Below, piece after piece: positions 9,308 to 62,019 of a stretch of DNA of 64,000 nt. The notes under the pieces were generated by a model. The model had not been told where the DNA came from. It did not search any database and saw only the letters and a program-made list of their open reading frames with translations. The translations under genes were made by a program, and so were the position numbers. The stretch is taken from the NCBI GenBank assembly GCA_000002435.2, contig CM018792.1; one strand, 5' to 3'. The DNA is from Giardia intestinalis (Eukaryota). Numbering within the stretch: position 1 is the first letter of the stretch; each line of letters opens with the position of its first letter.

Positions 9308-9332
9308 AGGTTAGAAATCCATCAGAGTAAAT

Positions 9333-10880
9333 TTACTCACTATGAGGGACGGCTGAAGCAGTGGGTGGATGGAGGCTTGCGCTTGTGGATAAAGCGCTAC
9401 CAGTCACTTCCCGGTGCTTCTTCAGAGGAATATATTTGGCAGCATCCTCAATCTCGTCCTTCGTAAGAAACGTGAGATTCTGTGGTTTCTCGGGGACATC
9501 ACAGCGATCACACTCCGTGAGGTGCTCAACAAAGTTCACGTCTTCGTCAACTGGATTCATCTTCGAGATCATGCGCTCAAGCTCCTGGTTCACGCGCTTG
9601 GCTTCTAAGTCGTCATCATACCCTTGTCTCAGAGTGTTGCGTAGGTTACTTCTATTGAGCTCATCCTCCCTTCGCTGAGCCTCATCAAGCTCCTTTAATC
9701 GGGCAGCATTGGCACGCTCGCGCTCTATCTCCTCTCTACGCTGCCGCTCGGCTTGTTCCTTCTGGTTTTTGATTTCGTCCGCCAAGTCTTTCGCCATCTG
9801 CCTATTGTGCTTTCGTGTCTCCTCTGCCAGTCGTGCATTTTCAGCGGCTATTTGATCGTGTAGCTTCCTTGCTATTTCCTTTTCACGCTCGCGCTCCTCT
9901 GTCTCCTTGGCCAATTGCTCGTCTTTAAGACGTTTTTGTTCTGCAGCAAAGTCATTTAGTTCAGCGAGTTTTCTAAGTCTCTCAGCTTCAGTTTCTTCCT
10001 GCCTTCCTACGGGCCCAATATAATCGTTTATCGCTGCCTTCTCCTCCTCGCGTCGCCTATCAGCCTCCTCCTTGCGCCTACGGATGTCAGCCTCGTGGTC
10101 ACGTTTCTGTTGGTCGGCAAAAGCACGCTGGCGTTCCAGTTCTCGCTGAGCATACTCCTGTGCCTCTCGACGTGCAGCCTCTTGTTGTTCCTTTTCGCGT
10201 TCTAACTCGCGCTGCATAGCCTCCCGTGCAGCTTGACGTGCCTTCTCACTCGCTCTAATTGCGGCCTGGGCATCATCTTGCACCCGCTTTCTCTGCAAAC
10301 GTTCAAGAGCAGCCTCGATATCAGCCAACTTTTTAGCATCATCTGCCTGTTGCTTGGCCGTCTTCTTTTCTTTGTCGCGTTCCATCTCTTCCAATAGCTT
10401 CCTCTTCGCCATATTTAGCTCATTGATGCATGTTGGACACCATGCATCCTCGCAGCGATCAACAACAATTCCAGATTTCATTGGATCATTGTGCCTGCAG
10501 TGAAGCGCCTTCTGCTCATTATAGTCTTTCATAGCAGCAAGAAGGTCCTTCTTTTCATCCAAGCTCATTGCTGCTAGTTGTGCAGTGGTGACGTAGGGTG
10601 CTGCTTTGGGCTGAATCCGAGAGCTGCCAGCAGAACCAGTGCTTGATCGAAGACAGCCTTCTTGTGGAGTCCTCTTTGCAGACGAGTTACCCACTGGAGT
10701 CATGGAGCCAGAGGGCGCCAAATCGTCCAACTTCAGATCACGCGGCTTAGCAGCTGGACTCACCACAGGTGGCTTCTCGCGGGGAGCCACAACCTTAAGC
10801 TCAGTGGAGCGGCTGATGGGATGGATGGGCTCGCTGGGAATGCTAACACCCAGGCTTCCCAGAATATCAAAGTCTGTCAT
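9333..10880 (-). CDS. charged coiled-coil protein with N-proximal Cys/His cluster (hypothetical)
   Basis: 515 aa, ATG at 10880 with aaaaaaATG upstream. Long Glu/Arg/Lys/Ala-rich heptad regions and a CRHN...CEDAWCPTC cluster. Confidence 0.6.
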   Translation of the reverse strand: MTDFDILGSLGVSIPSEPIHPISRSTELKVVAPREKPPVVSPAAKPRDLKLDDLAPSGSMTPVGNSSAKRTPQEGCLRSSTGSAGSSRIQPKAAPYVTTAQLAAMSLDEKKDLLAAMKDYNEQKALHCRHNDPMKSGIVVDRCEDAWCPTCINELNMAKRKLLEEMERDKEKKTAKQQADDAKKLADIEAALERLQRKRVQDDAQAAIRASEKARQAAREAMQRELEREKEQQEAARREAQEYAQRELERQRAFADQQKRDHEADIRRRKEEADRRREEEKAAINDYIGPVGRQEETEAERLRKLAELNDFAAEQKRLKDEQLAKETEEREREKEIARKLHDQIAAENARLAEETRKHNRQMAKDLADEIKNQKEQAERQRREEIERERANAARLKELDEAQRREDELNRSNLRNTLRQGYDDDLEAKRVNQELERMISKMNPVDEDVNFVEHLTECDRCDVPEKPQNLTFLTKDEIEDAAKYIPLKKHREVTGSALSTSASLHPPTASAVPHSE

Positions 10881-15543: not shown

Positions 15544-17673
15544 ATGCAGCTACCTAAGGTTTATCGGAAGTGCAAAACATGTCTAGTAGGAAATAGTCTG
15601 CTCCATTGCGTCGCCGAATCACTCACTGTACAAGGTCTGACTCCTGAAAAACTAATCTCACTAGCCAAGCGGCTAGTAAGCAAGTGCTCTGGGGTGGGTC
15701 ACGCTTTGATTTCATACTATAGCGTGACTATAAAAGGTGTTAGCACAATAGAGTTTATATCTCCATATGTAGGATGGTCCATAGAAGACTATCTCATGCT
15801 TACACTATATGAGGGAAGGACCATTCCAGAGGAACAAGTATATAGATTTATGGCCGCCATCATTTGGATACTTAACCAGCTCGTGCACATATGCAGAACC
15901 TCACTTCTTATGTGGATCTTTCTTGGATACGCCAATCTATCACTAAATAATTTCTGCCTAGATGAGTTTGGAGCAATACGTTTCCGCTTAGATCTAGGTC
16001 ACACGCTAAAGAACATGATACTGGTCGATGAACGACTTGCGGACTGGCCACGGATCAAAGGGAGTGAGTTAGGTGTTCATCTTAAACTGCATATAATACA
16101 GTGCATCTTACGTCTAGCGTTTCCCCTTAACAATTTAGAAATAAATGGAATTGATCCGTACTCGGGCGCATTTTCTCGAGTATTTAAAGACTCGGAACGA
16201 AGCAAGGTGTTTTGCAGTCGCATGGAGCGTTTAATTTATTTATTTCAAAAAGAAGACATAACGTTAAGTCATATATTACATACAAACTTATTCAAAACAG
16301 AATTAGAAAAGTACTGGCAATCCTTGGGCATAACAGCAGATGACGATGCATCAACGCCTCTCATCGACTCTGTGCGTGCAAACGATATACAAAAAATATA
16401 CAATTTTTATGGACGGCAGGCTGGAATGATGACTTCTTCTGGTAAAACTGCACTTATGATAGCAGCTTCCAGAGGAGACACACGCGTGACCACACTCTTA
16501 GCGACACGGGAAGCTAACTACAGAGACATTTATGGAAACTATGCAACTCTGCTGGCAATCAAGAATGGATACAAAAATGTGGCGTTGCACCTTGCAGCGT
16601 ATGAGTCCATGGTTCTTCAAGAGGATGGTATCACCCCGTTAATGCTTCACGTTATCGGCAAAAATCTACAAGTCCCATTTCAAGAACTGATACAGGATGC
16701 GGGGAAGCAAATGAAAAATGGATTTTCTGCTCTTATGATTGCTTCCTTGACTAATGATCTGGACTATTCAATGGTACTCGCAAAGAAAGAGGCAGGATTG
16801 TGTAACGCAGAAGGGAAGACAGCAGGAACACTAGCTAACGAGCAAGGAAATACACAAATTTCACAATTCTTGGCTCGTTATGAAATAGTAATGGGAGTTG
16901 ATGGAGAAACACAGCTTCATCAAGCAGTATTAGCGGGTGATCTGCGCGCAGTGGAAGCTTATGTACATGCTGCACGTTCATATAATAAGGCTGGCTATAC
17001 AGCGTTAGGATTAGCAGCAAAGTTCAATCATACTGATATCATAAAAACTCTGATTCCCCACGAAGCTGGGATGCGGTGTAAAGTTAGCTTCGAGGCATGC
17101 GGCAGGACGTTTCAGGATCCAACGGCTTTGGCCATAGCAGTCTATCATAATAACGAGCAGGCAGTGAATCTTTTAAAACGGTATGAGGCAGGATTGGGAA
17201 TGAAGCCCCTCCAAACTACTGCCATGATGCTTGCAGCAGCGTGCGGATATAGCGGACTTATATCTCTTCTGCGAACTCGAGAAGAAAAGATGCAAGACAC
17301 ACACGGCAACACCGCGCTGATGTACGCCGTGAATAGCTCTTCCCTAGACGCAGTTTATAAACTAATGAAATACGAATCTCGAATACAAAATACAGAAGGA
17401 TACACTGCACTTATGTATGCTGCCTTCCACAATAAGGTACAAATTGTTGCTGCTCTTATGAAACTGGAAGAGGGGATGATCAATGTGCAAGGCGAACCGG
17501 CTATTATCTGTGCTATCAAGGCAGAAGCTAAAGAGTGTATAAGTATACTTGTTCGAGGATCAGAGGTGTCGTATTCTAAACAGTGTATTGAAATGATTAA
17601 ATCCAGTGCTACACTGACTTGCGCTATGAAGAGAGTTATGTTGAGGTATTTTAAAGAGGAGAAATTTCATTGA
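15544..17673 (+). CDS. ankyrin-repeat protein ('protein 21.1'-like) with a possible degenerate kinase-like N-terminal region
   Basis: The track start at 15529 is GTG and follows an ATG-TGA. The real start is ATG 15544 in aactttaaaaATGcag. The C-terminal two thirds are tandem TALMxAAxxG...V..LL ankyrin repeats. The N-terminal 270 aa has alphaE/catalytic-loop-like spacing but no GxGxxG, HRD or DFG. Confidence 0.8.
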   Translation: MQLPKVYRKCKTCLVGNSLLHCVAESLTVQGLTPEKLISLAKRLVSKCSGVGHALISYYSVTIKGVSTIEFISPYVGWSIEDYLMLTLYEGRTIPEEQVYRFMAAIIWILNQLVHICRTSLLMWIFLGYANLSLNNFCLDEFGAIRFRLDLGHTLKNMILVDERLADWPRIKGSELGVHLKLHIIQCILRLAFPLNNLEINGIDPYSGAFSRVFKDSERSKVFCSRMERLIYLFQKEDITLSHILHTNLFKTELEKYWQSLGITADDDASTPLIDSVRANDIQKIYNFYGRQAGMMTSSGKTALMIAASRGDTRVTTLLATREANYRDIYGNYATLLAIKNGYKNVALHLAAYESMVLQEDGITPLMLHVIGKNLQVPFQELIQDAGKQMKNGFSALMIASLTNDLDYSMVLAKKEAGLCNAEGKTAGTLANEQGNTQISQFLARYEIVMGVDGETQLHQAVLAGDLRAVEAYVHAARSYNKAGYTALGLAAKFNHTDIIKTLIPHEAGMRCKVSFEACGRTFQDPTALAIAVYHNNEQAVNLLKRYEAGLGMKPLQTTAMMLAAACGYSGLISLLRTREEKMQDTHGNTALMYAVNSSSLDAVYKLMKYESRIQNTEGYTALMYAAFHNKVQIVAALMKLEEGMINVQGEPAIICAIKAEAKECISILVRGSEVSYSKQCIEMIKSSATLTCAMKRVMLRYFKEEKFH

Positions 17674-18611
17674 ATACCAAACCTTTGTGATAGTTTTCTT
17701 GCCCGTTCCATGTCCATGCTTAGTACAGTTGATAGTCCTTTCCAAATGACAGGGTCGAACTCATGTTGGTAAGCAGAATCTACTTGATCATCTGATTGCT
17801 GCGTATCCGAAAAACAAATTGTTGACCTAACATATAAAGACTCATATTCGTGCTTATTAAGGTCTATTTGTAGACCATGAATTGCGTAAAGTCGTTGCTG
17901 TTCTATCTTATCTGTGTATCTTCTTATCGTAATTAATCCTTCTGCATACAATTGCGCTATATCAAAGATAGCATGCACCGTTCGAGTAAAGTCTGTTGGG
18001 CTGAGAAATACGAAGGCCAGGGGGTAGAAGCCGCGGCGCGAGAGCTCCGTGACCCGCGCGAGGAGCCCCTGCTTCCGGCGCTCCTGGAGCTCGGCGCCGC
18101 ACATCGCGAGGGCCTCGTAGCGCCGCCGCTCGACGGCCTGCGCGCCGGAGGGCTCTGCCTCCCGGGGCCGCGGGGGAGCCCTGGGGGCTGCGGGCCCTGC
18201 GGTGCCGGCGGCGCACCCCGCGTACAGCGAGGCCGCGAGCTCGGGCGGGAAGCGGGCGGCGTACCCGGCCTGGAACGCGTCGGCGAGGAGGCGCAGGTCG
18301 ACGCGCGGCGGGTCTGCAGGGGCCCCGGCCCGGGGGAGGAGCCGCAGCTGGCCGCGGAGGAAGCCGGCGCCCTGGTCCTCGGCCGCCCGGGCCACCCGCG
18401 CCTCCAGGCTCCGGGCAGACAGGCGCACCGTGGCGGACAGCGCGGCCTCCGTCTGCAGCATCAGGCCGACGTCCCCCCGGGGCTGGGCGGCGTAGGACTC
18501 GTAGCCGTCCCGGAGCTCGGCCAGGAGCGCCGTGACCGCCGCGTGGTCCCGGGCCTGCGCGGCCGCCTGCACCCGGGCGGAGACGCTCGCGAGGCGCGCA
18601 CGGGGCTCCAT
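17667..18611 (-). CDS. island gene A: small Ala/Arg-rich protein. 203 aa are encoded inside the island, and in this copy the frame stays open for 111 more codons into flanking DNA
   Basis: The GC3-rich frame on the minus strand runs from ATG (18609-18611, MEPRARLAS...) down to the island edge at 18004. In copy 1 there is no stop until 17667-17669. In copy 2 the same frame stops 4 codons outside the island. Confidence 0.5.
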   Translation of the reverse strand: MEPRARLASVSARVQAAAQARDHAAVTALLAELRDGYESYAAQPRGDVGLMLQTEAALSATVRLSARSLEARVARAAEDQGAGFLRGQLRLLPRAGAPADPPRVDLRLLADAFQAGYAARFPPELAASLYAGCAAGTAGPAAPRAPPRPREAEPSGAQAVERRRYEALAMCGAELQERRKQGLLARVTELSRRGFYPLAFVFLSPTDFTRTVHAIFDIAQLYAEGLITIRRYTDKIEQQRLYAIHGLQIDLNKHEYESLYVRSTICFSDTQQSDDQVDSAYQHEFDPVIWKGLSTVLSMDMERARKLSQRFGIQ

Positions 18612-18621
18612 CGGACGGGGC

Positions 18622-18650
18622 GGAATTTTGCCGGCCGGCCAAAAATTCAC
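18622..18650. promoter_or_regulatory. palindromic AT-containing spacer between divergent island genes A and B (putative bidirectional initiator)
   Basis: ggaattttgccggccggccaaaaattcac is a near-perfect inverted repeat (aattttGCCGGCCGGCCaaaaatt). It is one of only about four AT-containing spots in the island and sits exactly between the two ATGs at 18611 (-) and 18654 (+). Confidence 0.4.
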
Positions 18651-18653
18651 TCG

Positions 18654-19793
18654 ATGGACTGCATCGGCCGCGGCGTCCTCCTCCCCCCGGGCGGGGCGTG
18701 CTCGTGCGGGGCGCTTCTGGCGGAGCTGCAGCGGGTCTGCCCCCTCCTCGCCGCCTCCCCGGGGGTCTGCGCCGCGCCCCGGGCCCTTGCGTGCTGCCAC
18801 CAGCCCCCGTGCCTCGAGATCGCGCCGGCGCCGGCCACCCCGCGCAGCGCCGTCCGGGTCCCTGGGTCCGCGTGCACGGCTCCACCGCCCGCCGCAGGGC
18901 CCCCGGAGGCCGCCCCGGCCGAGAGCGTCCAGGTGACCCTCAGCGCCCAGCGCGAGTCGTTCGTGATGCAGACGATGCGGCAGGCGCACTACGGCGGCGG
19001 AGAGGCCCCCGCGAGGGCGGAGAGCGCCCGCCTGCCCGCCCCGCAGGCCTCGGACCCGAGGGAGGCCCGGCGGAGCCACGCGTCCCGCCCGCGGACGGCC
19101 GGCCCCCGCCTCCCCGCCTGCCCCGAGGAGCCCCCCGGCAGGGTCCAGTTCCGGGGCGCCCCCGAGGCCCCGCCCCTGCGCTGCGAGCCGGCCCCGCCCT
19201 CCGAGTTCAGCGACTTCGGGTGCGAGCTGCTCGCGGCGGGCCAGCCCGAGGACCGGCGGGTCTGCGGCGCCCCGTGGGTGGACGCGCAGGACCTGCTGAG
19301 CGACGGCTCCGAGCACAGCGAGTTCTACCGCCTCGTCGAGAGGGAGCTCGCGCGGCTTCCGGAGCCCGCGGCCCCGGCCCTCCCGGAGAGCGAGCCCTCG
19401 CTGGACGCGCTGCCCGTGCACGCCTCGCCCCGGGGCCCGCAGATCATCGAGCCCACGCCGGCCGCCCTGCAGGAGCCAGAGGAGCCCGCGCCCCCGCAGC
19501 CCCCCACGCCGGGCCGCTCCGACAGCGTCTCGGCAGACATCACGGAGTCGCTCCTCGTGGAGGGCCGGCCCCTGCCCGACCGCCCCCCGGGCCCGGAGCC
19601 GTCCGAGGGCAGCGCCGGGTACAGCGGAGAGGCCTTCGACAGCTCCGGCTCGCCCCGGGGCCTGACCGACGAGGCCGCGGGGTCTGCGGGCCTGGACGAG
19701 GAGGACCTGCTGGGGTCCGTCGGCGGGGACCTGCGGGCGCTGCTCATGGACAGCGGGTCCGGGTCGCTGTCTGCGGGGGCCTGGCCGGAGTGA
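18654..19793 (+). CDS. island gene B: Pro/Ala/Glu/Ser-rich, acidic, probably disordered protein (379 aa)
   Basis: ATG at 18654 (MDCIGRG...). A GC3-rich frame runs to TGA 19791-19793. The stop overlaps a polyA-type signal gAGTGAACt. Confidence 0.6.
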   Translation: MDCIGRGVLLPPGGACSCGALLAELQRVCPLLAASPGVCAAPRALACCHQPPCLEIAPAPATPRSAVRVPGSACTAPPPAAGPPEAAPAESVQVTLSAQRESFVMQTMRQAHYGGGEAPARAESARLPAPQASDPREARRSHASRPRTAGPRLPACPEEPPGRVQFRGAPEAPPLRCEPAPPSEFSDFGCELLAAGQPEDRRVCGAPWVDAQDLLSDGSEHSEFYRLVERELARLPEPAAPALPESEPSLDALPVHASPRGPQIIEPTPAALQEPEEPAPPQPPTPGRSDSVSADITESLLVEGRPLPDRPPGPEPSEGSAGYSGEAFDSSGSPRGLTDEAAGSAGLDEEDLLGSVGGDLRALLMDSGSGSLSAGAWPE

Positions 19794-19816
19794 ACTCGGG
19801 AGAGCCTTTTTATTGA

Positions 19817-22327
19817 ATGGATTCTGCGCCACTCGCCGTCGCGATCCGGGAGCACGTCCCGGGCCCGAGGCCCCCGCCGCGGCCGTCCGGGGGGCGGTCC
19901 CTCTTCGCGCAGGCCGTGGCCGCCGGGGCCGGACAGACCGGGAGGCCCTTCGCCCTCGGGCAGCCCCCGCCGCGCGCCCCGGCCCCAGCGCCGCCCCGGG
20001 GCCCCCCACCGCCCCCCGCCGCAGAGGACCCGGGCGGGCCCCTCCTCGGGTACGGGGGCGCCGCAGACCCGGAGGCCGTCCCGTTCTGCAGCGCGGCGGA
20101 CATCGGGCTCCTCTGCCGGTCGACGAACCCCGCCCAGCGCGAGTACGGGCTCCGGATGCTCGCGAACGCCGTCGCGCTCCGGCGCGTCCGGGACGGCGGC
20201 GCCCCCGACCCCGTCCTCGAGGCCCTGCTCTGCCTCCCCGCCGACCCGCACGCGTGCCCCTCGTCTGCCGGCCACCTCCTCCTCCTGGGCCTGCGGGACG
20301 CCCTGGAGTCCGGGAGCCCCGGCCTCCTCGACGCCGCCCTCTCCGGCCTCGCCACGGTCTTCGTCGCCGACGAGGGCTTCCTCAGCGAGACCGTCCACGT
20401 CGGGGCCGCGCTGCTCGGGCTGACGTCCAGCTCGGTCGCCTTCCCCCTCGGCTCCCTGCTGCGGCGGCTCGTCGAGCACGGGCTCCCGGGGCTCCTGGGC
20501 CAGGCCCTCGACGCCGCCGCGCGCGCAGACGAGCGGCGCCGGGAGCGGCTCGCCCACAGCGCGTACCTGCTGGCCGAGCGCGTGCTCATCGGCTGCTGCC
20601 CCGCAGACGAGCCCCCGGAGACCGCCGCCGGCCTGCGGGCCCTCGCGGAGCGGCTCCTCGCGGCGCTCCTGGGCGAGCTCGCCGGGCTGGCGGAGACGGG
20701 GGCCTTCCTGACGACCGCCTCCCGCGTCGCCCTCCGGACGCTCTGCTACGACCACGTCCTCGACGGCCACGCGCTCGGCCGGGACGCCGTCGCCCTCCTC
20801 GTCGAGTCCCTCGAGGCGTTCGTCGGGGCGCTCCCCGGCCAGGACGAGGCGGTCCGCACAGAGCTCCTCTCGGCCGCCACGCTCCACTACCTCCTCGTCG
20901 CCCGGGTCCTGCGGGGGAGCCCCGAGCTCTGCGCCCTGCACGCGGCCGTCTCTGCGACGTGCGCCGCCGCCCTGGAGCGCCACGCCCCGGCCGCCCCCGC
21001 GGAGCTCAGCGCGCTCCTCGTCCTGCTCCGGATCCTCCGGGCCCGGGCCGCCGTCCCCCGCGCGCGCCTGGGGCTCTCGGAGGCATGCTTCCGGCGGCTG
21101 GTCGACTGGCGGGCCCCGCCCGAGGCCGGGGGCTTCGCGCTGCCCCAGGGGCCCTCCGCGGCGTTCGCCCCGTTCTACGCCCTCGCGGCCGTCCAGTGGC
21201 GCGGCCCGGGCGAGTGGGGCGCGGCGGAGGCCTGGGTCGGCTGCGTGATGGACGTCCTCGCCAGCGGGCCCCCGGTCGCGCGCTGGGCGCCCCCGGCCGT
21301 CGACGCCCACCGGCGGGCAGGCGTGCTCCCGTGCGCGGTGACCGACGCAGGGGTCGCCCTCGCGCTCCTCGTCGCGGCCCTGGCGGCCGTCTGGGGCCCC
21401 GGGCTCCCGTTTGCCGCCGGCCTCGCCGAGCGGGTCGGGGAGCGCCTGGCAGGGCTCCCGGCCGAGTTCCGGTTCGTCGTCGCGTTCCCGCTCGCCCGGC
21501 TCCTCCCCCCGCTGCCCGCTATCGAGTGCGGGCTCTACCCGAACGCGGCGCTCCTCGGGGCGCTCCGGGCCGTCACGGGCCACCCGGGCTACGACCCCGC
21601 GGCAGAGGCGCTTGCGCACGTCGACGCCCGCTGCCCGTGCCCCGCGCTCGCGGCCCTCCACGCGGCGTGCGTGCTCGCCTCGGACGGGATGCGGCGCGAC
21701 GGGGCGTGGCGGCTCGCGGTCCTCCGGCTCGCGCTGCAGCGCCTGGCCGGGCTGGAGACCGCAGGGGCCGCCCGGGGCCGCGTCCTCGCGTACGGGCTCC
21801 TCTGCGTCCTCGACACGCTGACGGGCGTCTGTCGCCTCCCCCCGGACGCCGCGGCCCTCCTCGCGGAGACGCTCGCCGGGGTCCTCCGCCTCGCCCGCGC
21901 AGGCCCCGCCCCCGCCGCCGAGCTCCTCTACGCAGCGCCCGCCGGGGGGCTCCGGACGCTCGACGCCGCCGCCGGCGCGTTTGTCGAGGGCCTCCACGGG
22001 GGCGCGGCGGTGCTCCCCGAGGCCCCGCTCGTCTACCTCGCGCTCCTCCACCCGCAGCTCGTCCCGGACCCCCGCCGCCGGGCAGAGCTCTGGTCCGGGC
22101 TCGCGCTCCTGCGGCTCGACTTCGCGGCGCTCGACGGGGGCCTCCTCGCGGGGCTCTGCGAAGACGACCCCGCGCCCGTCCTCGCGTGCCTCGCGTGCTA
22201 CGAGCGCCGCGCAGAGACCGCCCTGTCGCGCCGCGTCCTCGCCCGGTACGCAGAGGCCCACCGGGGGCAGAGGCCCGACCGGGTCGTCGTCGCGGCCGTC
22301 GAGGAGGCCCTCCGACCAGCGGGCTAG
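19817..22327 (+). CDS. island gene C: 836-aa Ala/Leu/Arg-rich protein, predicted alpha-helical repeat architecture, unknown function
   Basis: ATG at 19817 in ctttttattgaATGG. GC3 periodicity across the whole length and a single long frame. Confidence 0.7.
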   Translation: MDSAPLAVAIREHVPGPRPPPRPSGGRSLFAQAVAAGAGQTGRPFALGQPPPRAPAPAPPRGPPPPPAAEDPGGPLLGYGGAADPEAVPFCSAADIGLLCRSTNPAQREYGLRMLANAVALRRVRDGGAPDPVLEALLCLPADPHACPSSAGHLLLLGLRDALESGSPGLLDAALSGLATVFVADEGFLSETVHVGAALLGLTSSSVAFPLGSLLRRLVEHGLPGLLGQALDAAARADERRRERLAHSAYLLAERVLIGCCPADEPPETAAGLRALAERLLAALLGELAGLAETGAFLTTASRVALRTLCYDHVLDGHALGRDAVALLVESLEAFVGALPGQDEAVRTELLSAATLHYLLVARVLRGSPELCALHAAVSATCAAALERHAPAAPAELSALLVLLRILRARAAVPRARLGLSEACFRRLVDWRAPPEAGGFALPQGPSAAFAPFYALAAVQWRGPGEWGAAEAWVGCVMDVLASGPPVARWAPPAVDAHRRAGVLPCAVTDAGVALALLVAALAAVWGPGLPFAAGLAERVGERLAGLPAEFRFVVAFPLARLLPPLPAIECGLYPNAALLGALRAVTGHPGYDPAAEALAHVDARCPCPALAALHAACVLASDGMRRDGAWRLAVLRLALQRLAGLETAGAARGRVLAYGLLCVLDTLTGVCRLPPDAAALLAETLAGVLRLARAGPAPAAELLYAAPAGGLRTLDAAAGAFVEGLHGGAAVLPEAPLVYLALLHPQLVPDPRRRAELWSGLALLRLDFAALDGGLLAGLCEDDPAPVLACLACYERRAETALSRRVLARYAEAHRGQRPDRVVVAAVEEALRPAG

Positions 22328-22334
22328 CGTTCAC

Positions 22335-23264
22335 TCAATCAGGGGCACCTGACCCCAGGGCGGCCCGCAGGCCCGCGACCTCCCCCCGGAGCCGGGCGAC
22401 CTCGTCCTCCAGGGCCTTGAAGCGCAGGGCCGTCGCGACCGCAGGCGCCCCGCCCTCTGCGTCGAGGAGCTCCACGAGGGCCGCGGCGGTGAGGCGGCGC
22501 TCCGGCTCCAGGACGAGGAGGTGGGCGAGGACGCCCCGGACGACGGGGTCCCCGACCGCGCCCAGGTCCGGCCGCCAGCCCGCGACGTAGACCTCCGCGG
22601 GGGCCCGCCCGGAGAGGAACGGGGGCCTGCCGCCCGCCGCGAGCTCGTAGGCGACCATCCCGAGGCTCCACATGTCCGCGGCCGGCGTGTGGCTCCCGCC
22701 CCGCAGGACCTCCGGCGCGGCGTAGACGGGGACGGCCATGGAGGCGAGCCCCCCGGGGCCCTCCCTGCAGAGCCCGAAGTCGGAGATGGCGAACTCCGCC
22801 CCGGCCTCGTCGAGGAGGACGTTCGCGGGCCGCAGGTCGCAGTGCGTGAGGGCGGGGAGCGGGGCGCCCGCGGCGTCGGTCTTCCCGGGCCGGTGGAGGT
22901 AGGCGAGCCCCGCGCCCACCTGGCGGAGGACGGCGACGACCATCTCGCGCGGGGCGAGCTGCCTTCTGCGGCGGAGGCTCCGGATGGCCCCGTCGAGGGA
23001 GCCTGCGTAGCGCCGCATCTCGACGTAGATGTAGCCCTCGTGCCGGACGACGCGCCCGTACTCGACGACGTTCGGGTGGCGGAGGCGCGGGAGGGTCCGG
23101 AGCTCGAGCTCGAGCGAGGCCTGCGCGTCGGGGGGCAGCCCGTCGGTCGGGATCTCCTTGACCGCCCTGTCGGGGGCGCTCTTCAGGCCGTAGACGGTCC
23201 CGTGGGCCCCGCTCCCGAGCTCTGCGCCCAGGTCTTCGAGGAGGGCGTCGATGGCCTCGGACAT
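22335..23264 (-). CDS. island Ser/Thr protein kinase (309 aa) with atypical catalytic loop HCDLRPAN
   Basis: LGSGAHGTVY (Gly loop), RAVKEI (beta-3 Lys), HCDLRPANVLL (catalytic loop, R->C and K->R versus HRDLKPEN), SDFGL (DFG), YAAPEV (APE) and DMWSLGMVAYEL (subdomain IX). The ATG is preceded on the minus strand by ggattaaaaagATG. The stop TGA overlaps AGTGAAC. Confidence 0.85.
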   Translation of the reverse strand: MSEAIDALLEDLGAELGSGAHGTVYGLKSAPDRAVKEIPTDGLPPDAQASLELELRTLPRLRHPNVVEYGRVVRHEGYIYVEMRRYAGSLDGAIRSLRRRRQLAPREMVVAVLRQVGAGLAYLHRPGKTDAAGAPLPALTHCDLRPANVLLDEAGAEFAISDFGLCREGPGGLASMAVPVYAAPEVLRGGSHTPAADMWSLGMVAYELAAGGRPPFLSGRAPAEVYVAGWRPDLGAVGDPVVRGVLAHLLVLEPERRLTAAALVELLDAEGGAPAVATALRFKALEDEVARLRGEVAGLRAALGSGAPD

Positions 23265-23268
23265 CTTT

Positions 23269-23595
23269 TTAATCCGCGACTGGGCGATTGGGTGGGCTCA
23301 ATCGCTTGGGCTCAGATCGGGGCCTGTATAGATTCACCGAACAGATATGACAATTAGCGCACTTACTACCTAAGTTACGTCTTCCTGCAGCAGAAAAATC
23401 CAATGAGACCACCGCGCTCTTAGTAATATTAGAATTTGCGCATTTTGTCTTATCGTTATTAGAGTCAAAGATTTTTATCCTGGCACAATTATTGGATCTG
23501 TCCTTGTAGTTAGTAGTGGAAAATCCCACTCCACATGATGTTTGTGCCCATATAAACTGGATAATTAAGGCAACAAACACAAATCTGCCAAGCAT
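23269..23595 (-). CDS. questionable small ORF (108 aa) with N-terminal signal-peptide-like segment and 6 Cys; its last ~16 codons lie inside the island's right edge
   Basis: ATG at 23595 verified. MLGRFVFVALIIQFIWAQTS is hydrophobic. The frame continues across the island boundary at 23316 to a stop at 23269. Confidence 0.3.
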   Translation of the reverse strand: MLGRFVFVALIIQFIWAQTSCGVGFSTTNYKDRSNNCARIKIFDSNNDKTKCANSNITKSAVVSLDFSAAGRRNLGSKCANCHICSVNLYRPRSEPKRLSPPNRPVAD

Positions 23596-56287: not shown

Positions 56288-56911
56288 CTAAAGAGTAAGC
56301 TTAAGAAATACGAAGGCCAGGGGGTAGAAGCCGCGGCGCGAGAGCTCCGTGACCCGCGCGAGGAGCCCCTGCTTCCGGCGCTCCTGGAGCTCGGCGCCGC
56401 ACATCGCGAGGGCCTCGTAGCGCCGCCGCTCGACGGCCTGCGCGCCGGAGGGCTCTGCCTCCCGGGGCCGCGGGGGAGCCCTGGGGGCTGCGGGCCCTGC
56501 GGTGCCGGCGGCGCACCCCGCGTACAGCGAGGCCGCGAGCTCGGGCGGGAAGCGGGCGGCGTACCCGGCCTGGAACGCGTCGGCGAGGAGGCGCAGGTCG
56601 ACGCGCGGCGGGTCTGCAGGGGCCCCGGCCCGGGGGAGGAGCCGCAGCTGGCCGCGGAGGAAGCCGGCGCCCTGGTCCTCGGCCGCCCGGGCCACCCGCG
56701 CCTCCAGGCTCCGGGCAGACAGGCGCACCGTGGCGGACAGCGCGGCCTCCGTCTGCAGCATCAGGCCGACGTCCCCCCGGGGCTGGGCGGCGTAGGACTC
56801 GTAGCCGTCCCGGAGCTCGGCCAGGAGCGCCGTGACCGCCGCGTGGTCCCGGGCCTGCGCGGCCGCCTGCACCCGGGCGGAGACGCTCGCGAGGCGCGCA
56901 CGGGGCTCCAT
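56288..56911 (-). CDS. island gene A, copy 2 (207 aa; the stop lies 4 codons outside the island)
   Basis: ATG at 56909-56911. The protein is identical to the island-encoded part of copy 1 and ends ...FVFLKLTL. Confidence 0.55.
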   Translation of the reverse strand: MEPRARLASVSARVQAAAQARDHAAVTALLAELRDGYESYAAQPRGDVGLMLQTEAALSATVRLSARSLEARVARAAEDQGAGFLRGQLRLLPRAGAPADPPRVDLRLLADAFQAGYAARFPPELAASLYAGCAAGTAGPAAPRAPPRPREAEPSGAQAVERRRYEALAMCGAELQERRKQGLLARVTELSRRGFYPLAFVFLKLTL

Positions 56912-56921
56912 CGGACGGGGC

Positions 56922-56950
56922 GGAATTTTGCCGGCCGGCCAAAAATTCAC
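56922..56950. promoter_or_regulatory. palindromic spacer between divergent genes A and B, copy 2
   Basis: Same aattttgccggccggccaaaaatt element as in copy 1. Confidence 0.4.
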
Positions 56951-56953
56951 TCG

Positions 56954-58093
56954 ATGGACTGCATCGGCCGCGGCGTCCTCCTCCCCCCGGGCGGGGCGTG
57001 CTCGTGCGGGGCGCTTCTGGCGGAGCTGCAGCGGGTCTGCCCCCTCCTCGCCGCCTCCCCGGAGGTCTGCGCCGCGCCCCGGGCCCTTGTCTGCTGCCGC
57101 CAGCCCCCGTGCCTCGAGATCGCGCCGGCGCCGGCCACCCCGAGCAGCGCCGTCCGGGTCCCTGGGTCCGCGTGCACGGCTCCACCGCCCGCCGCAGGGC
57201 CCCCGGAGGCCGCCCCGGCCGAGAGCGTCCAGGTGACCCTCAGCGCCCAGCGCGAGTCGTTCGTGATGCAGACGATGCGGCAGGCGCACTACGGCGGCGG
57301 AGAGGCCCCCGCGAGGGCGGAGAGCGCCCGCCTGCCCGCCCCGCAGGCCTCGGACCCGAGGGAGGCCCGGCGGAGCCACGCGTCCCGCCCGCGGACGGCC
57401 GGCCCCCGCCTCCCCGCCTGCCCCGAGGAGCCCCCCGGCAGGGTCCAGTTCCGGGGCGCCCCCGAGGCCCCGCCCCTGCGCTGCGAGCCGGCCCCGCCCT
57501 CCGAGTTCAGCGACTTCGGGTGCGAGCTGCTCGCGGCGGGCCAGCCCGAGGACCGGCGGGTCTGCGGCGCCCCGTGGGTGGACGCGCAGGACCTGCTGAG
57601 CGACGGCTCCGAGCACAGCGAGTTCTACCGCCTCGTCGAGAGGGAGCTTGCGCGGCTTCCGGAGCCCGCGGCCCCGGCCCTCCCGGAGAGCGAGCCCTCG
57701 CTGGACGCGCTGCCCGTGCACGCCTCGCCCCGGGGCCCGCAGATCATCGAGCCCACGCCGGCCGCCCTGCAGGAGCCAGAGGAGCCCGCGCCCCCGCAGC
57801 CCCCCACGCCGGGCCGCTCCGACAGCGTCTCGGCAGACATCACGGAGTCGCTCCTCGTGGAGGGCCGGCCCCTGCCCGACCGCCCCCCGGGCCCGGAGCC
57901 GTCCGAGGGCAGCCCCGGGTACAGCGGAGAGGCCTTCGACAGCTCCGGCTCGCCCCGGGGCCTGACCGACGAGGCCGCGGGGTCTGCGGGCCTGGACGAG
58001 GAGGACCTGCTGGGGTCCGTCGGCGGGGACCTGCGGGCGCTGCTCATGGACAGCGGGTCCGGGTCGCTGTCTGCGGGGGCCTGGCCGGAGTGA
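56954..58093 (+). CDS. island gene B, copy 2 (379 aa, acidic, low complexity)
   Basis: ATG at 56954. Three amino-acid differences from copy 1 (G->E, A->V, H->R in the ASPGVCAAPRALACCH region) plus A->P near the C-terminus. The stop overlaps AGTGAAC. Confidence 0.6.
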   Translation: MDCIGRGVLLPPGGACSCGALLAELQRVCPLLAASPEVCAAPRALVCCRQPPCLEIAPAPATPSSAVRVPGSACTAPPPAAGPPEAAPAESVQVTLSAQRESFVMQTMRQAHYGGGEAPARAESARLPAPQASDPREARRSHASRPRTAGPRLPACPEEPPGRVQFRGAPEAPPLRCEPAPPSEFSDFGCELLAAGQPEDRRVCGAPWVDAQDLLSDGSEHSEFYRLVERELARLPEPAAPALPESEPSLDALPVHASPRGPQIIEPTPAALQEPEEPAPPQPPTPGRSDSVSADITESLLVEGRPLPDRPPGPEPSEGSPGYSGEAFDSSGSPRGLTDEAAGSAGLDEEDLLGSVGGDLRALLMDSGSGSLSAGAWPE

Positions 58094-58116
58094 ACTCGGG
58101 AGAGCCTTTTTATTGA

Positions 58117-60627
58117 ATGGATTCTGCGCCACTCGCCGTCGCGATCCGGGAGCACGTCCCGGGCCCGAGGCCCCCGCCGCGGCCGTCCGGGGGGCGGTCC
58201 CTCTTCGCGCAGGCCGTGGCCGCCGGGGCCGGGCAGACCGGAAGGCCCTTCGCCCTCGGGCAGCCCCCGCCGCGCGCCCCGGCCCCAGCGCCGCCCCGGG
58301 GCCCCCCACCGCCCCCCGCCGCAGAGGACCCGGGCGGGCCCCTCCTCGGGTACGGGGGCGCCGCAGACCCGGAGGCCGTCCCGTTCTGCAGCGCGGCGGA
58401 CATCGGGCTCCTCTGCCGGTCGACGAACCCCGCTCAGCGCGAGTACGGGCTCCGGATGCTCGCGAACGCCGTCGCGCTCCGGCGCGTCCGGGACGGCGGC
58501 GCCCCCGATCCCGTCCTCGAGGCCCTGCTCTGCCTCCCCGCCGACCCGCACGCGTGCCCCTCGTCTGCCGGCCACCTCCTCCTCCTGGGCCTGCGAGACG
58601 CCCTGGAGTCCGGGAGCCCCGGCCTCCTCGACGCCGCCCTCTCCGGCCTCGCCACGGTCTTCGTCGCCGACGAGGGCTTCCTCAGCGAGACCGTCCACGT
58701 CGGGGCCGCGCTGCTCGGGCTGACGTCCAGCTCGGTCGCCTTCCCCCTCGGCTCCCTGCTGCGGCGGCTCGTCGAGCACGGGCTCCCGGGGCTCCTGGGC
58801 CAGGCCCTCGACGCCGCCGCGCGCGCAGACGAGCGGCGCCGGGAGCGGCTCGCCCACAGCGCGTACCTGCTGGCCGAGCGCGTGCTCATCGGCTGCTGCC
58901 CCGCAGACGAGCCCCCGGAGACCGCCGCCGGCCTGCGGGCCCTCGCGGAGCGGCTCCTCGCGGCGCTCCTGGGCGAGCTCGCCGGGCTGGCGGAGACGGG
59001 GGCCTTCCTGACGACCGCCTCCCGCGTCGCCCTCCGGACGCTCTGCTACGACCACGTCCTCGACGGCCACGCGCTCGGCCGGGACGCCGTCGCCCTCCTC
59101 GTCGAGTCCCTCGAGGCGTTCGTCGGGGCGCTCCCCGGCCAGGACGAGGCGGTCCGCACAGAGCTCCTCTCGGCCGCCACGCTCCACTACCTCCTCGTCG
59201 CCCGGGTCCTGCGGGGGAGCCCCGAGCTCTGCGCCCTGCACGCGGCCGTCTCTGCGACGTGCGCCGCCGCCCTGGAGCGCCACGCCCCGGCCGCCCCCGC
59301 GGAGCTCAGCGCGCTCCTCGTCCTGCTCCGGATCCTCCGGGCCCGGGCCGCCGTCCCCCGCGCGCGCCTGGGGCTCTCGGAGGCATGCTTCCGGCGGCTG
59401 GTCGACTGGCGGGCCCCGCCCGAGGCCGGGGGCTTCGCGCTGCCTCGGGGGCCCTCCGCGGCGTTCGCCCCGTTCTACGCCCTCGCGGCCGTCCAGTGGC
59501 GCGGCCCGGGCGAGTGGGGCGCGGCGGAGGCCTGGGTCGGCTGCGTGATGGACGTCCTCGCCAGCGGGCCCCCGGTCGCGCGCTGGGCGCCCCCGGCCGT
59601 CGACGCCCACCGGCGGGCAGGCGTGCTCCCGTGCGCGGTGACCGACGCAGGGGTCGCCCTCGCGCTCCTCGTCGCGGCCCTGGCGGCCGTCTGGGGCCCC
59701 GGGCTCCCGTTTGCCGCCGGCCTCGCCGAGCGGGTCGGGGAGCGCCTGGCAGGGCTCCCGGCCGAGTTCCGGTTCGTCGTCGCGTTCCCGCTCGCCCGGC
59801 TCCTCCCCCCGCTGCCCGCTATCGAGTGCGGGCTCTACCCGAACGCGGCGCTCCTCGGGGCGCTCCGGGCCGTCACGGGCCACCCGGGCTACGACCCCGC
59901 GGCAGAGGCGCTTGCGCACGTCGACGCCCGCTGCCCGTGCCCCGCGCTCGCGGCCCTCCACGCGGCGTGCGTGCTCGCCTCGGACGGGATGCGGCGCGAC
60001 GGGGCGTGGCGGCTCGCGGTCCTCCGGCTCGCGCTGCAGCGCCTGGCCGGGCTGGAGACCGCAGGGGCCGCCCGGGGCCGCGTCCTCGCGTACGGGCTCC
60101 TCTGCGTCCTCGACACGCTGACGGGCGTCTGTCGCCTCCCCCCGGACGCCGCGGCCCTCCTCGCGGAGACGCTCGCCGGGGTCCTCCGCCTCGCCCGCGC
60201 AGGCCCCGCCCCCGCCGCCGAGCTCCTCTACGCAGCGCCCGCCGGGGGGCTCCGGACGCTCGACGCCGCCGCCGGCGCGTTTGTCGAGGGCCTCCACGGG
60301 GGCGCGGCGGTGCTCCCCGAGGCCCCGCTCGTCTACCTCGCGCTCCTCCACCCGCAGCTCGTCCCGGACCCCCGCCGCCGGGCAGAGCTCTGGTCCGGGC
60401 TCGCGCTCCTGCGGCTCGACTTCGCGGCGCTCGACGGGGGCCTCCTCGCGGGGCTCTGCGAAGACGACCCCGCGCCCGTCCTCGCGTGCCTCGCGTGCTA
60501 CGAGCGCCGCGCAGAGACCGCCCTGTCGCGCCGCGTCCTCGCCCGGTACGCAGAGGCCCACCGGGGGCAGAGGCCCGACCGGGTCGTCGTCGCGGCCGTC
60601 GAGGAGGCCCTCCGACCAGCGGGCTAG
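58117..60627 (+). CDS. island gene C, copy 2 (836 aa, Ala/Leu-rich)
   Basis: Same frame and length as copy 1. One difference noticed: Q->R in ALPQGPS. Confidence 0.7.
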   Translation: MDSAPLAVAIREHVPGPRPPPRPSGGRSLFAQAVAAGAGQTGRPFALGQPPPRAPAPAPPRGPPPPPAAEDPGGPLLGYGGAADPEAVPFCSAADIGLLCRSTNPAQREYGLRMLANAVALRRVRDGGAPDPVLEALLCLPADPHACPSSAGHLLLLGLRDALESGSPGLLDAALSGLATVFVADEGFLSETVHVGAALLGLTSSSVAFPLGSLLRRLVEHGLPGLLGQALDAAARADERRRERLAHSAYLLAERVLIGCCPADEPPETAAGLRALAERLLAALLGELAGLAETGAFLTTASRVALRTLCYDHVLDGHALGRDAVALLVESLEAFVGALPGQDEAVRTELLSAATLHYLLVARVLRGSPELCALHAAVSATCAAALERHAPAAPAELSALLVLLRILRARAAVPRARLGLSEACFRRLVDWRAPPEAGGFALPRGPSAAFAPFYALAAVQWRGPGEWGAAEAWVGCVMDVLASGPPVARWAPPAVDAHRRAGVLPCAVTDAGVALALLVAALAAVWGPGLPFAAGLAERVGERLAGLPAEFRFVVAFPLARLLPPLPAIECGLYPNAALLGALRAVTGHPGYDPAAEALAHVDARCPCPALAALHAACVLASDGMRRDGAWRLAVLRLALQRLAGLETAGAARGRVLAYGLLCVLDTLTGVCRLPPDAAALLAETLAGVLRLARAGPAPAAELLYAAPAGGLRTLDAAAGAFVEGLHGGAAVLPEAPLVYLALLHPQLVPDPRRRAELWSGLALLRLDFAALDGGLLAGLCEDDPAPVLACLACYERRAETALSRRVLARYAEAHRGQRPDRVVVAAVEEALRPAG

Positions 60628-60634
60628 CGTTCAC

Positions 60635-61564
60635 TCAATCAGGGGCACCTGACCCCAGGGCGGCCCGCAGGCCCGCGACCTCCCCCCGGAGCCGGGCGAC
60701 CTCGTCCTCCAGGGCCTTGAAGCGCAGGGCCGTCGCGACCGCAGGCGCCCCGCCCTCTGCGTCGAGGAGCTCCACGAGGGCCGCGGCGGTGAGGCGGCGC
60801 TCCGGCTCCAGGACGAGGAGGTGGGCGAGGACGCCCCGGACGACGGGGTCCCCGACCGCGCCCAGGTCCGGCCGCCAGCCCGCGACGTAGACCTCCGCGG
60901 GGGCCCGCCCGGAGAGGAACGGGGGCCTGCCGCCCGCCGCGAGCTCGTAGGCGACCATCCCGAGGCTCCACATGTCCGCGGCCGGCGTGTGGCTCCCGCC
61001 CCGCAGGACCTCCGGCGCGGCGTAGACGGGGACGGCCATGGAGGCGAGCCCCCCGGGGCCCTCCCTGCAGAGCCCGAAGTCGGAGATGGCGAACTCCGCC
61101 CCGGCCTCGTCGAGGAGGACGTTCGCGGGCCGCAGGTCGCAGTGCGTGAGGGCGGGGAGCGGGGCGCCCGCGGCGTCGGTCTTCCCGGGCCGGTGGAGGT
61201 AGGCGAGCCCCGCGCCCACCTGGCGGAGGACGGCGACGACCATCTCGCGCAGGGCGAGCTGCCTTCTGCGGCGGAGGCTCCGGATGGCCCCGTCGAGGGA
61301 GCCTGCGTAGCGCCGCATCTCGACGTAGATGTAGCCCTCGTGCCGGACGACGCGCCCGTACTCGACGACGTTCGGGTGGCGGAGGCGCGGGAGGGTCCGG
61401 AGCTCGAGCTCGAGCGAGGCCTGCGCGTCGGGGGGCAGCCCGTCGGTCGGGATCTCCTTGACCGCCCTGTCGGGGGCGCTCTTCAGGCCGTAGACGGTCC
61501 CGTGGGCCCCGCTCCCGAGCTCTGCGCCCAGGTCTTCGAGGAGGGCGTCGATGGCCTCGGACAT
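60635..61564 (-). CDS. island Ser/Thr kinase, copy 2
   Basis: Same motifs as copy 1. One substitution noticed: P->L in RRRRQLAPREM. The track ORF extends 15 codons upstream only because the 8-bp insertion changes the upstream frame. The ATG at 61562-61564 retains the aaaaagATG context. Confidence 0.85.
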   Translation of the reverse strand: MSEAIDALLEDLGAELGSGAHGTVYGLKSAPDRAVKEIPTDGLPPDAQASLELELRTLPRLRHPNVVEYGRVVRHEGYIYVEMRRYAGSLDGAIRSLRRRRQLALREMVVAVLRQVGAGLAYLHRPGKTDAAGAPLPALTHCDLRPANVLLDEAGAEFAISDFGLCREGPGGLASMAVPVYAAPEVLRGGSHTPAADMWSLGMVAYELAAGGRPPFLSGRAPAEVYVAGWRPDLGAVGDPVVRGVLAHLLVLEPERRLTAAALVELLDAEGGAPAVATALRFKALEDEVARLRGEVAGLRAALGSGAPD

Positions 61565-62019
61565 CTTTTTAATCCGCGACTGGGCGATTGGGTGATTGGG
61601 CGGGCTCAATCGCTTGGGCTCAGACTGAGATACCGCCTAGCTGAGCGCCGCTCAATGAGGGTGATCGGGCGGAATTGAACGAAAAGGAAAGGACCCGACC
61701 ATCGTTCCAGAGATGGCTTGACCGAGTTCGCCTGTCGACTAGGATCAGATCAGGCAGCTAGTACTGGACTACTCACTATCAATATGTATTCTATCACTGG
61801 AGTTATGGAACAGCTAAGTGAAGTCTATATTCTTAAGATGAATCTTAATTGTCAATAATTGATGTTTACAAATCTGGAGTCTCTGCATCTTAGGTCAATC
61901 CTAAATAGGTAAATATGAGCATGTCCAGATAAAGTTTACTGTCAACCCACATAGTAAGATAAGTTAAAGCAGATTACGACCTCCGAGGTTGAAAGAGGGA
62001 ATGCTTGTTGATGACCTCA

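Follow-up and report, generated by a model that had tools for sequence, protein, structure and literature searches.

We describe a GC-rich block of 5.3 kb that lies on contig CM018792.1 of Giardia intestinalis (assembly GCA_000002435.2), in a stretch of 64,000 nt that we analysed as a whole and refer to as the window. Self-BLAST revealed that the block is present twice in the window, as direct repeats (Table 1) that are 99.57% identical and differ by 15 substitutions and one 8-bp indel. Copy 1 measures 5313 bp and holds the 5′ two-thirds of a gene that we call gene A, together with gene B, gene C and a kinase gene. The GC content within the block is 0.78–0.81 (~79%), as compared with ~0.41–0.53 in the flanks and a background of ~46%. 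The GC content at third codon positions (GC3) reaches 0.95–0.97 in the block genes vs. 0.39–0.50 in neighbouring genes, the order within the block being GC3 > GC1 > GC2, and glycine, alanine, arginine and proline (GARP) make up ~50% of the encoded residues vs. ~22% in the neighbours. The spacers between the block genes are likewise GC-rich, except for the signals described below. The enrichment is milder in the most distant lineage sampled (block GC3 ~0.74), yet still far above the background of 0.29. As set out below, the block appears to consist of duplicated native Giardia genes turned GC-rich in place and not to be of foreign origin.

Annotated proteins of G. intestinalis WB clone C6 match exactly those of the four block genes and of a cathepsin L gene in the flank. 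All block genes are under purifying selection, with ratios of nonsynonymous to synonymous substitution (dN/dS) between 0.14 and 0.8: 0.14–0.39 for gene A, 0.5–0.8 for gene B, which also shows in-frame indels, 0.26–0.59 for gene C and 0.41–0.51 for the kinase. The protein of gene C, probably solenoid-like, has homologues with 69–89% identity in other Giardia lineages. Its AlphaFold2 model was poor (mean predicted confidence, pLDDT, 48) and Foldseek returned only generic HEAT/ARM alpha-solenoids with a template-modelling (TM) score of ~0.2, while the model of gene A (pLDDT 51) was too poor for fold comparison; an identification of either protein from its structure was given up for this reason and no functional conclusion was drawn from the models. 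The kinase translation contains the catalytic motifs GSGAHG, VKE, HCDLRPAN, DFG and APE, and its best sequence match in the PDB is human NEK2 (2.8e-17). Its assignment to the NEK family follows the source annotation and the top rank of NEK2 among solved structures. In the literature searched we found no description of the block and no mention of GL50803_23876 (gene B) or GL50803_60704 (gene C), and both "GC-rich" and "GC content" are absent from the text of the WB reference-genome paper (PMC7000408).

At 79% GC stop codons are scarce, and very long open reading frames (ORFs) arise for this reason in non-coding frames of the block (17667–22590), including one of 978 aa antisense to gene C and one of 925 aa in another frame. 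ORF length alone is therefore no evidence of a gene in the block, and the 978-aa antisense ORF and its like were rejected as genes. Ribosomal DNA (rDNA) or another structured RNA was also rejected as the basis of the GC-rich unit, there being no Rfam family over threshold anywhere in the window.

Table 1. Features of the two block copies and their signals (window positions).
Feature	Position	Strand	Remarks
GC-rich block, copy 1	18004..23316		edges from self-BLAST, composition and codon-position GC
GC-rich block, copy 2	56304..61624		direct repeat; 8-bp insertion in kinase upstream region
Gene A, full-length, 314 aa	17667..18611	-	diverged Nse4-like kleisin (putative); long form in DH, P15 and L014 lineage
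Gene A, truncated (copy 2), 207 aa	56288..56911	-	ends five codons past block edge
Gene B, 379 aa, GL50803_23876	18654..19793	+	largely low-complexity protein with short conserved blocks; exact WB match
Gene C, 836 aa, GL50803_60704	19817..22327	+	all-alpha; exact WB match
Kinase, 309 aa, annotated "Kinase, NEK"	22335..23264	-	Pfam Pkinase 4.4e-32; exact WB match
Gene B, copy 2	56954..58093	+	
Gene C, copy 2	58117..60627	+	
Kinase, copy 2	60635..61564	-	
AT-rich initiator-like patch CAAAATT, gene A	18624..18630	-	AT patch at equivalent position in P15, L012, L014/L015
AT-rich initiator-like patch AAAAATT, gene B	18641..18647	+	AAAAAT or AAAAAA kept in P15, L012, L014/L015
AT-rich initiator-like patch TTTTTATT, gene C	19807..19814	+	kept across lineages
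AT-rich initiator-like patch ATTAAAAA, kinase	23266..23273	-	kept in P15 and L001 lineage (kinase 65% identical)
Conserved kinase upstream element, CCCAATC(G/A) and CAAGCGATTGA repeats	23277..23312	-	15–50 nt upstream of start
AGTGAAC polyadenylation-type motif	19789..19795	+	overlaps gene B stop TGA 19791–19793
AGTGAAC polyadenylation-type motif	22329..22335	-	begins at last base of kinase stop TGA 22337–22335
Third AGTRAAY, AGTGAAT	18645..18651	-	in divergent A–B spacer, upstream of gene A

Gene A at the left edge of the block

In copy 1 the reading frame of gene A runs past the block edge, and its last 112 codons, which end at position 17667, are in ordinary DNA. Codons 1–202, which lie in the block, have a GC3 of 0.95, and codons 203–314, which lie outside it, a GC3 of 0.30. 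The long form of the gene is kept in assemblages A2 and E and in a third lineage, and its C-terminal part is strongly conserved. For the comparisons across lineages we used, besides WB, the P15-like contig L009 (assemblage E), contigs L010 and L014 of the third lineage, which is probably assemblage B, and the more distant L011 and L012. When 1.8 billion proteins were searched with a profile, Giardia muris (GMRT_10367, E 9e-36), the free-living fornicate Dysnectes brevis and two uncultured relatives turned out to have gene A orthologues, which align over their full length and continuously across the block boundary.

Nse4_C was the top Pfam match in 7 out of 7 members of the gene A family (WB and six homologues), with scores of 15–23 bits at a cutoff of 26. 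When the family profile was compared with all PDB sequences, the top four matches were yeast Nse4 (three entries) and human EID3, with E values of 0.04–0.3, and the match spans the Nse4 signature block and the C-terminal helix. Gene A thus resembles the delta-kleisin Nse4 in being collinear with the signature block (hPxxFxxTVxxlF...G.i) and the C-terminal helix, but differs from it in that all scores stay below the curated threshold and the N-terminal half is unrecognisable by sequence. Judged from these sequence comparisons, gene A probably encodes the Giardia Nse4, the SMC5/6 kleisin. The Nse4_C-like domain is conserved, and the block edge cuts it between YPLAFVFL and the signature xPxDFTxTVHxxFD.

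The step in composition is found at the same codons in other lineages. Directly after the YPLAFV codons the GC content falls from 0.72–0.87 to 0.30–0.43 in both WB copies, L014, L015 and L012, and from 0.60–0.73 to 0.35–0.47 in P15; the left edge coincides within ~10 nt in these six loci. The GARP fraction of gene A in the G. duodenalis lineages is 0.42–0.51 in the N-terminal part vs. 0.18–0.21 in the C-terminal part, whereas the difference between the parts is 0.07 at most in the orthologues of G. muris, Dysnectes and the two uncultured relatives. The outgroup orthologues having no compositional break, the break in gene A is derived and arose after the split from G. muris.

The enrichment of gene A is not equally strong everywhere. 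Its block part in P15 (L013:1–780 vs. window 18004–18749) has 60–73% GC per 60 nt, clearly lower than the 72–85% of the same tract in WB and the L014 lineage, although in the P15-like contig L009 the GC content of the other two genes, B and C, is 79%. The synonymous divergence (dS) between WB and P15 is 0.54 for gene A and 0.11 for gene C.

In copy 2 gene A is present as a truncated frame, which is open in two lineages: it encodes 207 aa in WB and 249 aa in the third lineage (L015:1302–2051), and the short tails, drawn from the local flank, differ. The fragment may be expressed, or its frame may be held open just by conversion from the full-length locus. It is a possibility that the truncated Nse4-like fragment is itself functional and would modulate SMC5/6-dependent recombination.

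The preliminary description of this locus, made from the letters of the sequence, saw in the block an alien-looking element adapted to the transcription machinery of its host and maintaining a composition of its own. An independent composition is what we observe in so far as it is held locally apart from that of the genome, but an alien element is not, as gene A is vertically inherited. The same description considered the host-type expression signals unexpected in a recently transferred bacterial or viral fragment, and a recent transfer is indeed excluded; the signals are host-type and conserved across lineages. An older event is a separate matter. A GC-rich foreign element (viral, bacterial or other) might have integrated before the assemblages diverged, been domesticated and gained host signals. 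As in a horizontally acquired island or an endogenous virus, the compositional anomaly of the block is extreme and sharp, more than one copy is present and there are orphan genes, since for genes B and C no homologues were detected outside the G. duodenalis complex; in addition, matches of the kinase beyond Giardia in a word index are mostly bacterial or metagenomic and some are from plants, a ranking affected by amino-acid composition. The block differs from such elements in including part of a vertically inherited gene, in being present across the species complex and in lacking an integrase or transposase, terminal repeats and donor homologues. It is the GC-rich N-terminal part of gene A that aligns with the orthologues of G. 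muris and Dysnectes, these orthologues have no compositional break, and the edge falls inside a conserved domain. The solved structure nearest to the kinase is a eukaryotic one, NEK2, and the solo kinase copy (see below) stands in conserved synteny in three lineages. For gene A, to which this evidence of native origin applies, a foreign source is largely refuted, and for the block as a whole we consider it very unlikely.

Searches aimed at mobile or imported DNA agree with this. No terminal direct or inverted repeats of the block were found beyond GC-rich noise, reading both sets of junctions gave no clear target-site duplication, and a Pfam scan of the block proteins gave no recombinase, transposase or reverse transcriptase domain; we therefore rejected a transposon. 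A bacterial or viral origin was rejected as well, as scans with Pfam, NCBIfam and PHROG returned the kinase domain only, with no PHROG or NCBIfam match for genes A–C, and no relative of gene C was found in IMG/VR or among GTDB genomes. We give next to no credence to an assembly artefact or contamination, i.e. GC-rich foreign contigs misjoined into a Giardia chromosome. Short-read assemblies do break at the block and some of their contigs look chimeric, but the block is joined to Giardia flanks in independent assemblies of several lineages, the reading frames that cross the junction are conserved, and the window proteins are also those of the WB assembly, whose longest contig reaches 2.76 Mb and for which PacBio long reads were used (PMC7000408).

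AT-rich patches and polyadenylation-type motifs

Runs of at least four A/T number five in copy 1, and four of these are placed close to a start codon. On the minus strand, AATTTT (18624–18629) precedes the ATG of gene A by 13–18 nt. AAAAATT precedes that of gene B (18654) by 7–13 nt, TTTTTATT that of gene C (19817) by 3–10 nt and ATTAAAAA, on the minus strand, that of the kinase (23264) by 2–9 nt. The fifth run (18006–18010) is found at the left block edge inside gene A and is the sole such run in block coding sequence. The preliminary description had spoken of the four sites upstream of the ATGs as the only AT-containing spots, which is right for four runs and too strict for the rest: besides the run at the left edge, the kinase stop region is AT-rich, and both the edge and this region (22330–22339) are among the AT-richest 10-mers of the block. 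A first-order Markov model of the block predicts 2.6 ± 1.6 runs of this length, so the observed count is ordinary. However, four of the five runs fall in the 20 nt before one of the four ATGs, zones that together account for 1.5% of the block, and our own arithmetic gives a chance of ~3e-7 for this. It is the placement of the A/T runs, not their number, that stands out.

The same arrangement is seen in other lineages: A/T runs are nearly confined to gene junctions also in L009, L010, L012 and the block part of L014. In each of the four block genes the ~20 nt before the start codon contain a short A/T-rich element, and an A-rich stretch just before the ATG occurs in many host ORFs of the window. 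Ahead of gene C, four lineages (WB, L009, L010 and L011) share the sequence CTTTTTATTGAATG without a difference and L012 has CTTTTTATTAATG, while the rest of the spacer diverges. Further upstream of the kinase, the CCCAATC(G/A)/CAAGCGATTGA units are kept in P15 (L002:2740–2790) and in the L001 lineage (L001:340–395). In copy 2 this element (61577–61620, minus strand) contains one extra 8-bp unit, which is the sole indel between the WB copies.

The motif AGTRAAY was observed three times in the block (both strands) against 0.07 expected, and none of 2000 simulations reached three. Two of the three overlap stop codons at the positions and with the letters reported before (19789–19795 on the plus strand, 22335–22329 on the minus strand). 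At the gene B stop GAGTGAAC is kept in 4 out of 5 lineages, L009, L010 and L012 among them, and L011 has TGTAAAT nearby; after the kinase stop (A/T)GTGAAY is found in the solo WB copy, P15 and L001, and TGTRAAC in L009–L011. The third motif lies on the minus strand of the spacer between genes A and B. Four lineages carry it there as GAGTGAAT, GAGTAAAT, GAGTGAAC and GAGTAAAC, which differ from one another at degenerate positions of the consensus and nowhere else; how far the motif lies from both ATGs varies (L012:568–576 and equivalent sites in L013, L014 and L015). This spacer motif may terminate minus-strand read-through or antisense transcripts before they enter gene A.

Neighbouring host genes had been said to use AGTRAAY, for which the window gives modest support. 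The exact motif follows the stop within 80 nt in 1 out of 18 long host ORFs of the window, and the looser [ATG]GTRAAH occurs between −4 and +30 nt of the stop in 6 out of 18, two of them overlapping it. In a published mapping of Giardia polyadenylation sites AGUGAA is the most frequent hexamer, and GUGAAC is listed as well (PMC3610916). The block genes are not listed in those supplementary files of the same transcriptome paper that we searched. Elsewhere in the window, the convergent host genes 7985–9307 (+) and 9333–10880 (−) share the palindromic AGTAAATTTACT at 9326–9337, which gives AGTAAAT to each strand, the minus-strand one overlapping the stop codon. Gene A (−) converges with an ankyrin-repeat gene (15529/15544–17673, +), their stops overlapping by 7 nt (17667–17673), and neither full-length gene A nor the ankyrin-repeat gene has a canonical AGTRAAY after its stop.

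In position the block signals resemble the core promoter and polyadenylation signals of Giardia: three patches lie 2–13 nt and AATTTT 13–18 nt before the ATGs, and AGTGAAC overlaps two stop codons, as similar motifs do in host genes of the window. They differ in standing in a GC-rich context, where the usual one is AU-rich, and in that two of the four block genes have no canonical polyadenylation signal after the stop. The signals are conserved in lineages whose proteins are only 57–89% identical, and conservation over such divergence argues for selection on them. On this comparative evidence the AT patches and AGTRAAY motifs appear to be host-type signals under selection, and we infer that transcripts use them. 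The order of events suggested before would then be reversed: with native orthology on one side and retained signals on the other, the findings point to host genes driven GC-rich whose signals resisted, rather than to a GC-rich element that acquired signals.

Concerted evolution and the source of the GC enrichment

The third lineage, like WB, has two loci. L014 is full-length and its flank is the orthologue of the WB copy 1 flank; L015 is truncated and breaks at the same codon as WB copy 2. The flank of L015 matches the copy-2 flank only, and weakly (61% over 232 nt, E 1e-7). The duplication thus looks older than the split of the lineages. Within a lineage, on the other hand, the blocks are nearly identical (99.57% in WB, 98.1% between L014 and L015), whereas between lineages identity is 72–82%. 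Copies that are alike within a lineage and diverged between lineages are the classic signature of interlocus gene conversion, and taken with a duplication predating the split they indicate that the block copies evolve in concert. Between the two WB copies, 12 of the 14 differences that could be polarised are derived in copy 2 (18763–21147 vs. 57063–59447), with five of the copy-2-derived differences clustered within the first 190 nt of gene B.

A third, solo copy of the kinase stands beside GWT1, with synteny conserved in three lineages. Its homology to the block kinase ends exactly after AGTGAAC, and the GC-rich stretch ends there too. Two short-read Logan contigs, L003 and L004, join the right flank of copy 1 or copy 2 via the kinase to the GWT1 locus, and the P15 contig L002 (ACVC01000137) runs from the orthologue of the copy-2 right flank (cathepsin L side) through a variant-specific surface protein (VSP) gene to kinase–GWT1. 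These joins are either assembly chimeras induced by the repeat or a sign that kinase copies are real sites of rearrangement; L003 and L004 were left out in placing the 5′ edge of the solo copy.

We propose, with a probability of about 65%, that the block results from segmental duplication of native genes, GC-biased interlocus conversion between the copies and selection that kept the AT-rich signals. The duplication would have taken in the 5′ part of gene A with its Nse4-like kleisin, two orphan genes, of which B is of low complexity and C alpha-helical, and the NEK-type kinase gene, and gene conversion between loci would keep the copies nearly identical. If heteroduplex repair is GC-biased, as we infer, or if another homology-delimited GC-ward process is at work, only the shared tract would be pushed to ~79% GC (GC3 ~0.96), after the split from G. 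muris, and the push would halt where homology ends. Giardia genes are transcribed from short AT-rich initiators that lie a few nucleotides before the ATG and polyadenylated after AGTRAAY-type signals at or just past the stop, and purifying selection would retain the bases of both as A/T against the GC pressure; it is for this reason that they would stand out as AT spots.

The geometry of the enrichment is what this mechanism predicts. Conversion is limited to the tract that the copies share, hence a bias in it would enrich exactly the repeat and stop at its edge even in the middle of a gene, and the enrichment is found confined to the shared tract at the left edge in six loci and at the 3′ edge of the solo kinase. 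The moderate dN/dS values and the inflated glycine, alanine, arginine and proline content fit a non-adaptive pressure on genes that are still functional. GC-biased conversion is well documented in other systems. The block resembles rDNA arrays, mammalian histone and Hsp70 paralogues and sex-chromosome palindromes in that its copies are alike within a genome and orthologues less so, in that its GC3 is very high and in that enrichment is limited to the tract that pairs between copies. It differs from them in having only two or three dispersed copies, yet going from 46% to 79% GC, in having an edge inside a conserved single gene, and in that the bias in Giardia is a presumed one. In a population study, Giardia genes in inferred gene-conversion events were GC-enriched (PMC12669663).

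Selection for GC-rich coding sequence in the four genes, whether for mRNA stability, translation or avoidance of antisense pairing, would account for the order GC3 > GC1 > GC2 and for the conservation of the genes. We regard it as improbable, as the non-coding spacers of the block are GC-rich too (signals excepted), the step falls in the middle of a gene, the truncated copy shares the composition, and the proteins were dragged to ~50% glycine, alanine, arginine and proline with fairly high dN/dS, which looks non-adaptive. A somewhat stronger competitor, though still an unlikely one, is a local GC-ward mutational process, such as error-prone repair at a recurrent break or replication site or a mutator triggered by repeat homology. 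A mutator of the latter type would be like fungal repeat-induced point mutation (RIP) acting in the opposite direction, and we know of no such GC-ward process in any organism. It predicts sharp boundaries coinciding with the repeat equally well, and a comparison that could have revealed a fixation bias showed no difference between young and fixed changes (Fisher p 0.75, a test with no power here). The young differences between the copies, on the other hand, are mostly of the opposite direction, from G/C to A/T (S>W; 9 vs. 3 W>S, small numbers), and concerted evolution is demonstrated directly, GC-biased conversion having precedents elsewhere.

Several of these observations and others weigh against GC-biased conversion of native duplicates as well. 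The excess of S>W among the polarised WB copy differences is one, and the fixed substitutions on the assemblage A and E branches go the same way (58 S>W vs. 28 W>S), with a spectrum indistinguishable from that of the young differences in the test above; together these branches imply an equilibrium GC of ~0.65. For the third lineage, probably B, the implied equilibrium GC is ~0.80. The enrichment may therefore be mostly old and now relaxing on the A and E branches. Two or three copies also seem few for so extreme an effect, and the genes in conversion events of the population study cited above had a median GC of 0.54, other duplications not being reported as so GC-rich (PMC12669663). Native origin was established for gene A only, with no outside homologues for genes B and C; orthology of the copy-2 flank between lineages depends on the weak match described, and genes A and C have no clear AGTRAAY after their stops.

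A broader process was considered in addition, in which a homology-delimited mechanism of Giardia, be it strong biased conversion or a mutator, would turn old dispersed duplicates extremely GC-rich, the rDNA and the block sharing their cause. The abstract of PMC10123126 describes the rRNA and ribosomes of Giardia as uniquely GC-rich. We hold such a process to be unlikely.

Implications for Giardia

The locus contains a candidate Nse4 (SMC5/6 kleisin) of Giardia that is unannotated in the WB reference. To our knowledge Giardia has no known sexual stage, and its recombination biology is debated. We class the block with the GC enrichments seen in duplicates that evolve in concert, among which it is an unusually extreme case with clean boundaries, and presume a conversion bias as its cause. 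It offers a natural experiment on homology-limited GC enrichment, one half of gene A having been transformed and the other left untouched, and, as the GC pressure would have removed whatever is dispensable, its residual AT bases show to the base where the candidate minimal initiators and polyadenylation signals of the four genes lie. A 33-point jump in GC content with razor-sharp edges can arise within a eukaryote's own genes, and compositional islands should therefore not be called foreign without a check of orthology.

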